IMG/VR virus record: IMGVR_UViG_2547132279_000012
Coordinates: 1 to 41,632 of that record
Length of the DNA: 41,632 nucleotides
Source of the DNA: a virus
Taxonomy: Duplodnaviria > Heunggongvirae > Uroviricota > Caudoviricetes
Reading direction: 5' to 3' (one strand)
Positions 16,481 through 22,180 of the stretch are shown one piece after another. Made by a program: the position numbers and the translations under genes. The notes below the pieces were generated by a model that worked only from the letters and a program-made list of their open reading frames with translations, ran no database searches and was not told where the DNA came from. How positions within the stretch are numbered: the stretch's first letter is position 1; every line of letters begins with the position of its first letter.

Positions 16481-17341
16481 ATGCAAAACGTACAGCCGCT
16501 ATCTCTGGTAACTACTTTAGTAATTTTGAGGTCTAATGGAGAGTCAAAGTCGTTAGGTACTGGGTTCTTTTATCAACATAGCAATGGTTTCATTTTCCTT
16601 GCAACTAACTATCATGTAATAACTGGAATCAGCCCATCCGAAAGGGGTGTAAAGCCATTTATAGGCGATAGTATTGATATTCAGCTGAGAGATAAAACCG
16701 GAAAACTATTCAAACATACGATGCCTCTGTTTAAAGATGGTTCACCGCTGTGGTTGGAGCACCCCACAGATAAAGAGGCAGACATTATCTTGATGCCTTT
16801 GCCTCAAGAGTTGTTTGTAAACACAGGAGTAAAAGTAGTCTCAAAAACAACGACACTGCCTAATGTCCAGATAAACCCCTCATCTCCTGTTGTAATGATT
16901 GGATATCCTCATGGTTATCATGACACGACTCACTACCTTCCAATATGGAAAACAGGAAGCTTAGCGAGTGAGCCAGATATCGATTTCGATGGGAAGAAAT
17001 TAATAGTTGTCGATATTTCTGCTTTCCCTGGAATGTCAGGCTCTCCGGCATTCTATGTCACGCACAGTGGTTATCTTACAAAAGAAGGGAATATGATCAT
17101 GGATATGGGAATGAAAATTCATTTCCTTGGCGTTTATGCAAGTATGCAAATGCTAAACAGTGATCTTTTCTTAGAACAAGTCGTTAGTGCTGCAGAATAC
17201 AAAGTGTCGCATAGTGAATCTTTGCAACTAGGGCATGTCTGGAAAGCTGAGTTACTTGAAGAGATAGCTGCGACATCTAGTCCGATTGCAACCACACCAT
17301 CTCAATTTCAAAGTAATAGCAAATTCTTATTTAAGTACTGA
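16481..17341 (+). CDS. Trypsin-like (S1/chymotrypsin-fold) serine protease, cytoplasmic, AT-rich moron
   Basis: Catalytic triad context: His in TNYHVITG, Asp in EADIILMP, Ser in GMSGSPAF; no signal peptide; start could also be 16430 or 16472. Confidence 0.7.
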   Translation: MQNVQPLSLVTTLVILRSNGESKSLGTGFFYQHSNGFIFLATNYHVITGISPSERGVKPFIGDSIDIQLRDKTGKLFKHTMPLFKDGSPLWLEHPTDKEADIILMPLPQELFVNTGVKVVSKTTTLPNVQINPSSPVVMIGYPHGYHDTTHYLPIWKTGSLASEPDIDFDGKKLIVVDISAFPGMSGSPAFYVTHSGYLTKEGNMIMDMGMKIHFLGVYASMQMLNSDLFLEQVVSAAEYKVSHSESLQLGHVWKAELLEEIAATSSPIATTPSQFQSNSKFLFKY

Positions 17342-17416
17342 GATACGTCTACACATAAACCGCCTGTTGGAGGTTTTTATGCATATCGTGCGAGCAGTAT
17401 CAGAGAGAATATTTCA

Positions 17417-17767
17417 ATGCCACCACGAACACCAAAAGCCTGCCGTGTTCGCGGCTGCCGATCGACAACCACAGACCCGTCAGGTTATTGCAAGCAACAC
17501 AAAGGCGAAGGCTGGAAGCAATACAAGCCAGGACAATCCCGTCATCAGCGCGGTTATGGTTCGAAGTGGGACGTTATCCGCGCGCGTGTGCTGAAGCGTG
17601 ACAAAGGCCTGTGTCAGTTGTGTTTGCGTGCCGGTGTGGTGCGCGAGGCGAAAACCGTTGACCACATCATTCCTAAAGCGCATGGCGGCACTGATGCCGA
17701 CCGTAATCTGCAGAGTCTGTGCTGGCCGTGTCATAAGGCGAAGACGGCCCGTGAACGGTTGAAGTGA
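17417..17767 (+). CDS. HNH endonuclease (terminase-associated)
   Basis: Cys-rich HNH motif (CQLC...VDHIIPKAHGGTDADRNLQSLCWPCH) immediately upstream of the terminase genes. Confidence 0.85.
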   Translation: MPPRTPKACRVRGCRSTTTDPSGYCKQHKGEGWKQYKPGQSRHQRGYGSKWDVIRARVLKRDKGLCQLCLRAGVVREAKTVDHIIPKAHGGTDADRNLQSLCWPCHKAKTARERLK

Positions 17768-17794
17768 TAATAATTCTCAACTGCTTGAGGGGAG

Positions 17795-17854
17795 GGGCGG
17801 GTCAAATCCCTGCGGCCTGACGTCTTCCGGACTGCCCGCCCCATCGTTTTTTTA
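17795..17854 (+). terminator. Strong hairpin plus T-run between HNH and terS (terminator and/or cos-region structure)
   Basis: 8 bp GGGGCGGG/CCCGCCCC stem around a structured loop, followed by ATCGTTTTTTTA. Confidence 0.4.
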
Positions 17855-17883
17855 TACCCGCGAAAAATGAAATTTAACCAGGA

Positions 17884-18387
17884 GTGCCGCATATGGCTGG
17901 AACGGCGGGGCGTTCCGGGCGTCGCCCCAAGCCAACGGCGCGCAAGGCGCTGGCCGGAAACCCCGGCAAGCGAGCCCTGAACAAAGATGAACCTGTTTTT
18001 ACGCCCATCAAAGGTGTTGAGCCACCAGAGTGGTTCGCTGATGAAGATCTCCCTCTCGCCACGATCATGTGGCAACTGACAACCAAAGAACTCTGCGGTC
18101 AGGGCCTGCTGTGCGTGACTGACCTGGCGGTACTTGAGCGGTGGTGCGTGGCCTATGAGTTCTGGCGACGTGCCGTGAAAAATATTGCCATACAGGGCAA
18201 CACCATCACCGGTGCAATGGGCGGCAGGGTCAAAAATCCGGAGCTGACCGCCAAAAAAGAACAGGAGTCCGAGATGAGCAGCACGGGGGCAATGCTCGGA
18301 CTCGACCCCAGCAGCCGCCAGCGTCTGATTGGCCTGGCGGGGCAGAAGAAAGCCACTAACCCGTTTCTGAAAATTATCGAATCATGA
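17884..18387 (+). CDS. Terminase small subunit (P27-family-like)
   Basis: Basic N-terminus ([22 protein letters not shown]), position directly upstream of the large subunit. Confidence 0.8.
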
Positions 18388-20117
18388 GCCGGAAATCTTA
18401 CCCCAACGTAAATGCTGCAAATCAGTATGCCCGGGATGTCGTGCGCGGAAAGATTGTTGCCTGCCAGTTTGTGATTCAGGCCTGCCAGCGCCATCTTGAT
18501 GACCTGATGGCGGAAAAAAGTAAGTCGTTTCGTTACCGCTTCGACAAGGACCTGGCTGAACGGGCCGCGAAATTTATTCAGCTGTTGCCGCACACCAAGG
18601 GGGAGTGGGCATTCAAACGGATGCCCATCACGCTGGAGCCGTGGCAGCTATTTGTGATCTGCTGTGCGTTTGGCTGGGTCAATAAAGGCACCCGGTTGCG
18701 CCGCTTCCGGGAGGTGTACACCGAAATCCCCCGTAAGAACGGCAAATCAGCAATCTCTGCCGGTGTTGCCCTGTATTGTTTTGCCTGTGATAACGAGTTT
18801 GGCGCGGAAGTGTATTCCGGTGCCACGACAGAGAAACAGGCGTGGGAAGTCTTTCGCCCGGCGCGACTGATGTGTAAACGCACACCCATGCTGACGGAAG
18901 CGTTCGGGATTGAGGTTAACGCCTCAAACATGAACCGTCCGGAGGATGGCGCGCGGTTTGAACCGCTGATCGGCAACCCAGGTGATGGTTCATCACCCCA
19001 CTGTGCCGTGGTTGATGAATATCACGAGCATGCCACCGATGCGCTTTATACCACAATGCTTACCGGGATGGGGGCGCGACGTCAGCCACTGATGTGGGCC
19101 ATTACTACTGCCGGGTACAACATTGAGGGGCCGTGCTACGACAAACGGCGGGAAGTTATCGAGATGCTCAACGGTTCGGTACCCAACGATGAACTGTTCG
19201 GGATCATCTATACCGTTGACGAAGGTGACGACTGGACCAACCCACAGGTGCTGGAAAAAGCCAACCCGAATATCGGGGTGTCGGTTTACCGTGAGTTTTT
19301 GTTAAGTCAGCAACAGCGTGCGAAAAATAACGCCCGTCTGGCAAACGTCTTTAAAACAAAACACCTCAATATCTGGGTGTCGGCGCGTTCGGCGTATTTC
19401 AACCTGGTGAGCTGGCAGAGCTGCGAGGATAAATCACTGACTCTTGAGCAATTCGAGGGGCAGCCGTGCATTCTGGCCTTTGACCTGGCGCGTAAACTGG
19501 ATATGAACAGCATGGCGCGACTTTATACCCGCGAGATTGACGGTAAAACGCATTACTACAGTGTGGCCCCGCGTTTCTGGGTACCGTATGACACGGTGTA
19601 CAGCGTCGAGAAAAATGAAGATCGCCGGACAGCCGAACGCTTTCAGAAATGGGTGGAAATGGGCGTCCTGACCGTTACCGATGGTGCAGAGGTGGATTAT
19701 CGCTACATCCTCGAAGAGGCCAAAGCGGCGAACAAAATCAGCCCGGTCAGCGAGTCACCCATCGACCCCTTCGGGGCGACCGGGCTGTCACATGACCTTG
19801 CTGATGAAGACCTGAATCCCGTCACTATCTTCCAGAACTTCACCAATATGTCCGATCCGATGAAAGAGCTGGAAGCAGCGATTGAATCGGGACGTTTTCA
19901 TCATGACGGCAATCCCATCATGACCTGGTGTATCGGCAACGTGGTCGGCAAAAACATGCCGGGTAACGATGATGTGGTGAAACCCGTCAAAGAGCAGGCG
20001 GAAAACAAAATTGACGGTGCAGTTGCGCTGATTATGGCGGTTGGAAGAGCCATGCTGTACGAGAAAGAAGACACGCTGTCTGATCACATTGAGTCCTACG
20101 GGATCCGCTCGCTTTAA
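18384..20117 (+). CDS. Terminase large subunit
   Basis: 577 aa with ATPase Walker A-like IPRKNGKS and a C-terminal nuclease region; coupled to terS. Confidence 0.95.
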
Positions 20118-20311: not shown

Positions 20312-21552
20312 TGTTCTTTTCGGGATTATTTCAACGAAAAAGTGACGCACCGGTGACCACGCCAGCAGAGCTGGCGGATGCTATCGGGCTGTCATACGAC
20401 ACCTATACCGGAAAGCAGATCAGCAGCCAGAGGGCCATGCGACTGACGGCGGTTTTTTCCTGCGTCAGGGTGCTGGCGGAGTCGGTCGGGATGTTGCCCT
20501 GCAACCTGTATCACCTGAACGGCAGCCTGAAGCAGAGAGCCACTGGCGAACGTCTGCATAAGCTGATCTCCACGCATCCCAATGGCTATATGACGCCGCA
20601 GGAGTTCTGGGAGCTGGTGGTCACCTGTCTGTGCCTGCGGGGAAACTTTTACGCCTACAAAGTGAAAGCATTTGGCGAAGTGGCTGAACTGCTGCCCGTC
20701 GATCCCGGCTGTGTGGTACCGAAGCTTAACAGTAGCTGGGAGCCGATCTATCAGGTCACATTCCCGGATGGCTCCACGGATGTACTGAGCCAGGAGGATA
20801 TCTGGCATGTGCGTACGCTGACGCTGGACGGACTGGTGGGGCTGAATCCCATCGCCTATGCCCGCGAGGCAATATCGCTGGCAGCTGCGACCGAAGAGCA
20901 CGGGGCCAGACTGTTCAGCAATGGCGCGGTGACGTCGGGTGTGTTGCGTACAGAGCAGACGCTGTCAGATCAGGCTTATGAGCGCCTGAAGAAAGATTTT
21001 GAGGAGCGTCACACCGGGCTTGGCAATGCTCACCGCCCGATGATCCTTGAGATGGGGCTGGACTGGAAGTCGATGGCGCTGAACGCCGAGGACAGCCAGT
21101 TCCTGGAAACCCGCAAGTTTCAGCTTGAAGAAATCTGTCGTCTGTTCCGTGTGCCATTGCACATGGTGCAGAACACCGATCGTGCCACCTTCAACAATAT
21201 CGAAGAACTGGGGCTGGGATTTATCAACTATTCACTGGTGCCGTATCTGACCCGCATTGAGCAGCGGATCAACACCGGACTGGTACGAAAAAGTAAGCAG
21301 GGCGTTTATTACGCCAAATTTAACGCCGGGGCGTTACTGCGCGGGGATATGAAGTCCCGTTTTGAAGCCTACGCCACCGGGATTAACTGGGGAATTTACT
21401 CTCCCAATGACTGCCGCGACCTGGAAGATATGAATCCGCGTCCCGGTGGGGATGTCTATCTCACACCGATGAACATGACCACGAAACCCTCCGATGGCAG
21501 TAAAGCCGGTAAGCAGAAGGATAACGCCAATGCAGACGAAACAACGTCTTGA
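20311..21552 (+). CDS. Portal protein (HK97-family)
   Basis: 413 aa, position after the terminase, composition typical of HK97-type portals. Confidence 0.9.
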   Translation: MFFSGLFQRKSDAPVTTPAELADAIGLSYDTYTGKQISSQRAMRLTAVFSCVRVLAESVGMLPCNLYHLNGSLKQRATGERLHKLISTHPNGYMTPQEFWELVVTCLCLRGNFYAYKVKAFGEVAELLPVDPGCVVPKLNSSWEPIYQVTFPDGSTDVLSQEDIWHVRTLTLDGLVGLNPIAYAREAISLAAATEEHGARLFSNGAVTSGVLRTEQTLSDQAYERLKKDFEERHTGLGNAHRPMILEMGLDWKSMALNAEDSQFLETRKFQLEEICRLFRVPLHMVQNTDRATFNNIEELGLGFINYSLVPYLTRIEQRINTGLVRKSKQGVYYAKFNAGALLRGDMKSRFEAYATGINWGIYSPNDCRDLEDMNPRPGGDVYLTPMNMTTKPSDGSKAGKQKDNANADETTS

Positions 21553-22180
21553 TGTACCGCTGAGTCTGAAATCTGTCAGTGACTCCGGTGAGTTTGAAGG
21601 GTATGGCTCCGTCTTTGGTGTAAAGGACAGCCACGATGATGTGGTGATGTCCGGGGCATTTGCTGCTTCCCTGCGGGCGTGGAGTGACAGAAAAGCGTTA
21701 CCTGCGCTGCTCTGGCAGCACCGCATGGATGAACCCATCGGTGTTTACACTGAAATGAAGGAAGACGATGTCGGACTTTACGTCAGGGGACGGTTGCTTA
21801 TTGATGATGATCCCCTCGCAAAACGCGCACATGCACACATGAAGGCCGGTTCGTTAACCGGCCTTTCTATTGGGTACGTCCTGAAAGACTGGGAATACGA
21901 CCGGAGCAAAGAAGCCTTTCTGTTGAAAGAAATCGACCTCTGGGAAGTCAGTCTGGTGACGTTTCCGTCTAACGACGAGGCGCGGATCAGCGACGTCAAG
22001 AACGCGCTGGCCCGCGGGGAAATCCCCGAACAGAAAAAAATCGAAAGAGTCCTGCGTGATGTCGGACTCTCCCGTACCCAGGCCAAAGCATTCATGGCCG
22101 GGGGCTATGGCGCACTGTCCCTGCGCGACGCTGAGGATGTGGGCTCTGCACTGAATGCACTGAAAAATCTGAACTTCTAA
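21530..22180 (+). CDS. Prohead protease (HK97-family, S78)
   Basis: GYGSVFGVKDSHDDVV motif; start MQTKQRL overlaps the portal 3' end. Confidence 0.85.
   Translation: MQTKQRLDVPLSLKSVSDSGEFEGYGSVFGVKDSHDDVVMSGAFAASLRAWSDRKALPALLWQHRMDEPIGVYTEMKEDDVGLYVRGRLLIDDDPLAKRAHAHMKAGSLTGLSIGYVLKDWEYDRSKEAFLLKEIDLWEVSLVTFPSNDEARISDVKNALARGEIPEQKKIERVLRDVGLSRTQAKAFMAGGYGALSLRDAEDVGSALNALKNLNF

Follow-up and report, generated by a model that had tools for sequence, protein, structure and literature searches.

Trypsin-like protease modules are known from several bacterial antiphage systems, namely Hachiman (HamA), AVAST (Avs1a), Lamassu (LmuA), and DRT, in which they are fused to a sensor and activate a neighboring latent effector, for example a pro-nuclease of the metallo-beta-lactamase (MBL) fold (PMC12799240; bioRxiv 10.1101/2025.09.03.673762; PMC12642450). 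A further family, PDC-S45, is one of 145 candidates put forward by “guilt-by-embedding” in BREX, DISARM, or type I restriction-modification (RM) loci (Payne et al. 2024, bioRxiv 10.1101/2024.01.29.577857). Here we describe a gene at 16481–17341 (plus strand) of a 41,632-nucleotide (nt) viral sequence (IMG/VR record IMGVR_UViG_2547132279_000012, positions 1 to 41,632; this whole stretch is referred to below as the window). Its product, a 286-amino-acid (aa) S1 serine protease that stands alone, matches the PDC-S45 profile. The window is an integrated prophage of the SfII/SfV serotype-converting type, and the gene lies at the junction of its lysis and packaging modules. In our judgment the chances are about even that this candidate is a lysogen-expressed, single-gene antiphage protease moron. 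This is the best-supported reading, given the PDC-S45 match, the anatomy of a moron, the position in an immunity hotspot, a second defense candidate (PDC-M53A/B) in the same prophage, and some defense-like neighbors of homologous genes.

The match to PDC-S45 (PADLOC; E 1.5e-40) aligns protein residues 5–264 with profile positions 18–281 of 293 (90%). The window gene resembles that family in that the hidden Markov model match extends over most of the profile and in being a single gene that lacks a recurrent partner. It differs in its setting, as the family was defined by its embedding in BREX, DISARM, or type I RM loci, whereas the window copy is a prophage moron at the lysis/packaging junction. 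Also, its match is weaker than that of some members, for example a copy in a Sinorhizobium prophage (E 4e-94); the one paper that names PDC-S45 lists it, without further analysis, in Sinorhizobium prophages. The other PADLOC matches were weak (PDC-M35A, and the trypsin/protease region of LmuA at E 0.0026), and none of the remaining PADLOC v2 models, those of validated systems included, was matched. With the modules of Hachiman, AVAST, Lamassu, and DRT, the protease has in common an S1 domain of the Trypsin_2 type and the weak similarity to the LmuA profile, but it is only 286 aa long and has neither a fusion nor a recurrent neighbor. No MBL family was found among the neighbor families of its homologs (top 25 of the 115 listed), and its neighbors in the window are Rz1 and an HNH gene.

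Lit, carried by the e14 prophage of Escherichia coli, is a zinc metalloprotease that cleaves EF-Tu when the Gol peptide of phage T4 is present. As a single, cytoplasmic, prophage-borne protease that makes up a complete abortive-infection system, it may be the best functional analogy for substrate-gated cleavage, although the analogy is one of mechanism only, Lit being a metalloprotease with no sequence or structural relationship to the S1 enzyme. From HtrA, DegS, and DegP (MEROPS S1C; 15%–19% identity) the window protein differs in having no PDZ domain and no signal peptide, and its LPIWKTG and ESLQLGHVWK motifs and long beta-hairpin (residues 211–255) are not HtrA features. Morons of the lambda bor type lie at the lysis/packaging junction, and the moron concept itself is reportedly that of Hendrix and Juhala. 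In lambdoid prophages an immunity hotspot lies directly upstream of the packaging module. It is exemplified by Tai of phi80, where autoimmunity of the immune gene taiEcA led to the selection of insertion sequence (IS) insertions in that gene (PMC11364771). The window locus shares with phi80 Tai/Ati this hotspot, the accessory nature of the cargo, and the occurrence of IS insertions in the gene. However, the proteins are unrelated, and taiEcA is divergent, with a cognate counter-defense gene, whereas the window gene is co-directional and alone.

The coding features of the protease are as follows.

16481–17341, plus strand: coding sequence of the 286-aa stand-alone S1 (chymotrypsin-fold) serine protease (profile matches, alignment, structure model)
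16613–16615, 16781–16783, and 17036–17038, plus strand: catalytic codons for His45, Asp101, and Ser186, respectively
17318–17338, plus strand: C-terminal tail motif SKFLFKY, clade consensus [ST]-F-x-x-[KR]-[FY]-COOH (alignment, model)

The open reading frame (ORF) runs from 16430 to 17341 on the plus strand, and the ATG at 16481 is the start common to all homologs in the alignment (MQNV...LSL) as well as the RefSeq start of an identical gene, WP_228178886.1, from E. coli MS1679 (“S1 family peptidase”). Trypsin_2 (PF13365) is matched with 34.9 bits against a cutoff of 27.6 (E 3.1e-8) and is the only Pfam domain in the protein; phrog_7688 is matched at E 7e-112. A search of NCBIfam gave no match, and one of the Protein Data Bank (PDB) sequences gave no close relative, only marginal matches to V8-like and exfoliative-toxin proteases (E about 0.02). 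In an alignment of 33 sequences, reaching as far as Nitrospira, Bacteroidota, Chloroflexota, and Desulfobacterota, His45, Asp101, and Ser186 (in GMSGS, of the GxSGx form) are invariant and stand in the order His, Asp, Ser. In all, 44 positions are invariant over the full length across these phyla, the triad included, and the family motifs LPIWKTG and ESLQLGHVWK are largely so.

The structure model is confident and has a DegS-like double beta-barrel fold. It comprises the protease barrels, the long beta-hairpin noted above, one helix, and a disordered tail; Foldseek searches of the PDB and BFVD returned only generic chymotrypsin-fold proteases and no informative viral relative. Residues 11–32 are modeled as barrel strands (predicted local distance difference test score about 97), residue 1 falls, in the alignment, where the mature domain begins in homologs that bear signal peptides, and the sole possible in-frame upstream extension, of 17 codons (MIVCFYNLYRSSCWMNF), is not signal-like. 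Thus, the window copy has no signal peptide. On alignment and model, it looks like a cytoplasmic, catalytically competent S1 protease with an HtrA-like fold, lacking a PDZ domain, a sensor domain, and a partner gene. A first, sequence-only reading of this DNA had described an ORF of roughly 290 aa with an intact His/Asp/Ser triad and no signal peptide, and had pointed to Trypsin_2 for profile searches; length, triad (the very residues it named), and the lack of a signal peptide in the window copy were all confirmed, and PF13365 was matched above its curated threshold. The C-terminal tail motif follows a variable linker and is retained in the enterobacterial homologs (P0002–P0037) but absent from other phyla. 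Residues 270–286 are disordered in the model, and the tail may be an autoinhibitory, docking, or regulatory element.

The evidence that the gene is accessory cargo comes from comparison of the window with related phages and prophages, for which two features are needed.

16320–17406, plus strand: AT-rich variable cargo cassette (moron) in the slot between Rz1 and HNH, 1.09 kb, guanine-plus-cytosine (GC) content 0.397 compared with 0.50–0.55 in the flanks
16640–16643, no strand assigned: site of the IS911 insertion in the SfII ortholog, at codon 54 (blastn breakpoints)

The lysis region of the window is 99.9% identical to that of Shigella phage SfII, and the early region is 97.7%–98.4% identical to those of SfIV and SfII. 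Immediately upstream of the protease gene is Rz1, which ends at 16363, and downstream is the HNH gene (17417–17767; Pfam HNH E 5e-16). The GC content is 0.400 in the protease ORF, 0.502 in the lysis genes, and 0.553 from HNH to portal. Nucleotide homology to relatives without the gene (SfV, SfIV, 720R4, 689R6, and sal3) ends at 16286–16319 and restarts at 17407–17417. Because homology to SfV and SfIV ends inside the Rz1 frame (16091–16363), the last 15–25 codons of Rz1 differ according to whether a genome has the cargo. SfV has an empty slot of 26 bp, and in SfIV and 720R4 the slot is noncoding; in 689R6 it is filled by an unrelated 169-aa ORF and in phage sal3 of Salmonella by three small ORFs. 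Other prophages of E. coli (L004) match the flanks at 90% (lysis) and 96% (HNH to portal) nucleotide identity, whereas the protease allele in their slot is only 50% identical in amino acid sequence, and intact alleles of 48%–74% identity are kept in many prophage backbones. The protease gene is accessory cargo of the moron kind: optional, compositionally foreign, and exchanged as alleles within a conserved backbone. The sequence-only reading, which had called it a moron in AT-rich DNA between Rz1 and the HNH/terminase genes, was right on both counts, given the deviant base composition and the gene's presence in some close relatives and absence from others.

The same position recurs more widely. 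In Enterobacterales the copies are almost always prophage genes directly 3' of a lysis cassette, on backbones of every kind. This holds in myovirus prophages resembling SfV, in a prophage of Serratia that encodes Terminase_2 and Terminase_3, in one of Citrobacter that encodes a GH108 endolysin and Terminase_6, and in a decayed one of Enterobacter. In 13 nonredundant IMG/VR contigs, the genes just upstream include 12 endolysin matches (three families), at least five holin families, and Rz, and those downstream include terminases of at least four types. In Pectobacterium, one copy lies away from any prophage, beside a fragment of an IS200-type transposase. The window prophage also carries a second AT-rich moron (GC 0.32), at 13181–14738 on the minus strand, between Q (12756–13121) and the holin gene S (15024). 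Its ORFs, of 340 and 175 aa, match PADLOC PDC-M53A (E 2e-32) and PDC-M53B (E 2e-42), respectively, and neither has a Pfam domain; they correspond to SfII_50 and SfII_49, which are listed as unique to SfII. In related prophages the slot between Q and S holds a 406-aa protein together with an NA37 nucleoid-associated protein or, in SfV, a DNA methyltransferase. With PDC-M53A/B on one side and PDC-S45 on the other, the lysis cassette is flanked by two defense candidates.

In SfII itself the gene is broken. By blastn, window position 16643 corresponds to 4644 of the SfII locus (L001) and 16642 to 5894, with a 1249-bp insert between them that is annotated as IS911 ORF A/B. SfII was obtained by induction of Shigella flexneri 2a strain NCTC 4, and infection was used to define its host range (PMC3772137). 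Because the SfII copy is split and the phage is nonetheless inducible and infectious, neither lytic growth nor lysogeny requires the gene. In E. coli 20A24 (NZ_CP147044.1; L023 2370–4608), the 50%-identical allele in the same slot has an independent, second insertion, of the IS3 family, near codon 99. The gene is also rare. Allele A occurs in two and allele B in three of 5,426 complete E. coli genomes, and a tblastn search of 50,697 deposited phage genomes found it in SfII alone, as the IS-broken copy. It occurs in 24 IMG/VR contigs, whose numbering suggests that they are mostly prophages of isolate genomes. The scarcity in deposited phages compared with IMG/VR may reflect sampling bias, or intact copies may be disfavored during lytic propagation.

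Two other roles for the locus were considered and rejected. The prophage has a separate prohead protease of the HK97 type, as the sequence-only reading had said (ORF 21494–22180, RefSeq start 21530; Peptidase_S78 E 1.2e-31), so a morphogenetic role for the S1 protease was rejected; the protein also has no Pfam match to the prohead-protease families S78, S77, or U35. The view that the phage needs no structural or lytic contribution from this gene likewise held, with the slot empty in SfV and the SfII copy split. The HNH gene, as a nuclease that the protease might activate, was rejected because it is present in every SfV-type phage, with or without the protease.

The sequences on either side of the coding region bear on how the gene may be expressed.

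16364–16480, plus strand: AT-rich intergenic stretch 5' of the gene, where the Shine-Dalgarno sequence (GGATGA) is weak and the extended -10-like element at 16439–16447, TGCTTTTAC, is degenerate
17357–17380, plus strand: terminator-like hairpin and T-run (AAACCGCC-TGTT-GGAGGTTT-TTAT) just past the stop codon (fold)

The motif TGnTAnnnT is found upstream of the ATG in 10 of 12 nonredundant enterobacterial copies, compared with 1.5 in composition-matched shuffles, a count that measures conservation rather than independent recurrence because the sequences are homologous. It lies at -46 to -50 in nine copies and at -31 in allele B, and the nonprophage copy of Pectobacterium is among those that have it. 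In the window the position of the element is kept (-42) and the consensus is lost. Likewise, the hairpin of the window has an imperfect stem and a z-score of only -0.8, and canonical intrinsic terminators occupy the same place in relatives, namely allele B (L004; GCCGCC-UACG-GGCGGC-U5) and the Citrobacter copy (L067; GGCCCCG...CGGGGCC-U4, z -3.7). In these relatives the -10-like element and the terminator together give the classic moron layout, which suggests transcription independent of the Q-antiterminated late operon.

A 15-nt direct repeat (16477–16491 and 17375–17389; TTTTATGCAAAACGT and TTTTATGCATATCGT, identical at 13 of 15 positions) encloses the ORF, with one copy at the start codon and the other just beyond the terminator-like hairpin. 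Chance is the probable explanation, although the repeat could be a recombination scar; 12-nt inverted repeats near the ORF are two-copy matches of the same kind and were treated as chance. An Rfam scan of 12500–18500 gave no match, and no hidden RNA element was seen there.

Outside Enterobacterales, the family is found on chromosomes and not in viral contigs (the IMG/VR scan recovered the enterobacterial clade only). An exhaustive profile search yielded 286 clusters at E ≤ 1e-30, and the best 150 of these, all of 98–365 aa, include no domain fusions. Neighbors were surveyed in 18 nonphage loci (102 neighboring ORFs, pooled for PADLOC and Pfam scans, so that counts are not per locus). No neighbor family occurs in more than four of the 102 flanking ORFs, and an all-against-all BLAST comparison of the neighbors found clade-local groups only: integrases in three loci, a large kinase-containing protein in two Acidobacteriota loci, and extracytoplasmic function (ECF) sigma factors in two. 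The gene thus does stand alone, as had been proposed, with partner domains sought in homologs and neither a recurrent neighbor nor (among the best 150 matches) a fusion found. As for homologs in defense islands, a check suggested by the sequence-only reading, the answer is mixed. Four inspected loci have defense-like neighbors, namely those of Nitrospira (TIR, HNH, and caspase-TPR), Geothermobacter (HEPN RiboL-PSP), a Bacteroidota metagenome-assembled genome (MAG; methyltransferase and ParE toxin–antitoxin genes), and Desulfobulbus (DUF3644, transposases, and a methyltransferase), but no enrichment is evident across the 102 ORFs of the 18 loci.

In two Acidobacteriota/Vicinamibacterales MAGs (L043 66–2708 and L046 4281–7628; 37%–39% identity), the protease is directly preceded by a protein of 880–1115 aa. 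The two large proteins share 48% identity and probably correspond to the two neighbors that matched Pkinase and PD-T4-6 profiles, and this subclade could have a clade-specific two-gene arrangement.

If the gene is an antiphage moron, the protease would be transcribed on its own in the lysogen, as the -10-like element and terminator of its relatives suggest, and would protect the lysogen, and hence the prophage, from superinfecting phages by proteolysis. Given that there is no separate sensor or effector, substrate-gated cleavage would be the likeliest mode. A phage protein might be cut directly, or, as with Lit, the cut might fall on a host protein and depend on the appearance of a protein specific to infection. 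The clade-specific F-x-x-K-[FY] tail at the C-terminus may autoinhibit the enzyme or dock it, and its activity may be costly to host or phage, which could account for the IS-inactivated copies. The two independent IS3-family disruptions, in SfII and E. coli 20A24, would then parallel by analogy the IS knockouts of autoimmune taiEcA in phi80. A stronger form of this proposal, which we hold only tentatively and consider somewhat doubtful, is that the single-domain, 286-aa S1 protease is a complete immune system, with sensing and killing combined in one chymotrypsin fold. Its cleavage would be gated by infection, its tail would keep it latent, and partial autoimmunity toward its own prophage would select for the IS knockouts in SfII and E. 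coli 20A24.

Several observations weigh against the defense reading. The protease gene is co-directional with the Q-dependent late operon, whereas both validated lysogen-expressed cargo such as phi80 taiEcA and the PDC-M53 pair of the same prophage are divergent, and this weakens the case. Scans with sigma-70 and terminator consensus sequences did no better than shuffles and found nothing adjoining the gene; with its degenerate promoter-like element and weak terminator, the window copy is one whose autonomous expression we infer. The insertion in SfII may be neutral, given the abundance of IS elements in Shigella genomes. The pooled neighbor census is dominated by housekeeping genes, and components of type I RM and BREX are not recurrent in it. 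Identity across phyla is 43%–49% with no hypervariable sensor region, unlike the usual phage-sensing protein. Moreover, 26 of the 141 core-family proteins (18%) carry a signal peptide or membrane anchor ahead of the conserved start (e.g., MKTFIYLFSALLMWVQSMNAQ and MKKQLSKRIVTIFLVIFIICLLI; among the carriers are P0049, P0054, P0065, P0066, P0080, P0094, P0099, P0102, P0121, P0125, P0126, P0128, P0131, P0132, and P0138). Such a mix of exported and cytoplasmic members is unusual for a proposed cytoplasmic immune protease, and the description “cytoplasmic” in the sequence-only reading thus applies to the window copy but not to the family as a whole. Finally, the literature on PDC-S45, on stand-alone trypsin-like defenses, and on S1 peptidases in prophages yielded no functional study.

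The signal peptides, together with the invariable position behind the spanin genes, also keep alive a role in the late or lysis phase. The protease would then be transcribed with the lysis genes under Q and, like an endolysin, would reach the envelope or medium when the holin fires, to act as an accessory lysis factor or a released exoprotease. The gene points the same way as the spanin genes and is immediately 3' of them. In 12 of the 13 nonredundant viral contigs it lies behind a lysis cassette, with the endolysins of these cassettes belonging to three or more families and the holins to five or more, and with terminases of four or more types downstream; Serratia, Citrobacter, and Enterobacter prophages have it in the same place. 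Signal peptides reach roughly one-half of the best-scoring cluster representatives (50% identity), compared with 18% of the core family, and the nearest solved folds (HtrA/DegS, Spl, and V8) are those of extracytoplasmic enzymes. However, SfV and SfIV lyse their hosts without the protease and SfII does so with a broken copy; intact copies that lack signal peptides occur away from lysis cassettes in Pectobacterium, Nitrospira, Desulfobulbus, and Geothermobacter; the conserved promoter-like element and terminator suggest Q-independent expression; and a fixed position is equally expected of any old moron in syntenic, mosaic lambdoid genomes. We know of no precedent for an S1 protease as a lysis factor, and we consider this explanation rather unlikely. 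The cargo might instead have no role in phage conflict, being a cytoplasmic quality-control, stress, or regulatory protease, or else a near-neutral or decaying hitchhiker in a slot that tolerates insertions. The housekeeping character of most neighbors in nonphage loci, the rarity in E. coli (two and three genomes of 5,426 for alleles A and B), the two IS-disrupted copies, and the weak expression signals of the window copy would all fit. A protein conserved strongly over its full length across phyla, with 44 invariant positions that include the triad, and kept as intact alleles of 48%–74% identity in many prophage backbones, is not readily seen in this way, and the PADLOC candidate match and the defense-like neighbors of some loci also speak against it; this possibility is unlikely, although the least so of the three alternatives weighed here.

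The least probable of the alternatives, in our view, is a counter-defense protease, made during the phage's own lytic cycle or on infection, that cleaves host immune proteins, for example sensors of late structural proteins. In its favor, the slot is variable and accessory, and the orientation with the late operon is that of the phi80 counter-defense gene atiEcA in the same genomic region (PMC11364771). But the family is mostly found outside phages and in many phyla, with viral contigs of IMG/VR contributing the enterobacterial clade only; a single deposited phage genome of 50,697 has the gene, as a broken copy; the profile matched is that of a defense candidate; and late expression would come too late to counter most defenses. 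The sequence-only reading had named both possibilities. For an anti-defense factor, nothing specific speaks apart from co-direction with the late operon. For single-gene abortive infection or defense, the near-full-length PDC-S45 match, with no partner and no fusion, is in favor, and the lack of obvious defense-island enrichment in the 18-locus census is not.

The protease gene is real and its anatomy was correctly described at the outset; the defense reading is reasonable, but it coincides with an existing PADLOC candidate and is no new kind of system. Natural controls for it exist among SfII-type backbones, in which the allele may be intact, 50% identical, or IS-disrupted, or the slot may be empty. 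Should the protease prove to have no defense role, a hotspot of cargo exchange is still documented at the junction of lysis and packaging modules in SfV-like prophages, and the case would be a warning that annotations of the PDC type rest on guilt by association alone. If the role is real, a minimal and easily cloned immune protease, occupying <1.1 kb with its own signals, would be carried by a medically relevant serotype-converting prophage of Shigella and E. coli. It would be the first validated stand-alone serine-protease defense, as the validated trypsin-like ones that we found are all sensor-fused and paired with latent effectors. It would also directly address the PDC-S45 candidate family and give insight into how a protease without a sensor tells infected from healthy cells.

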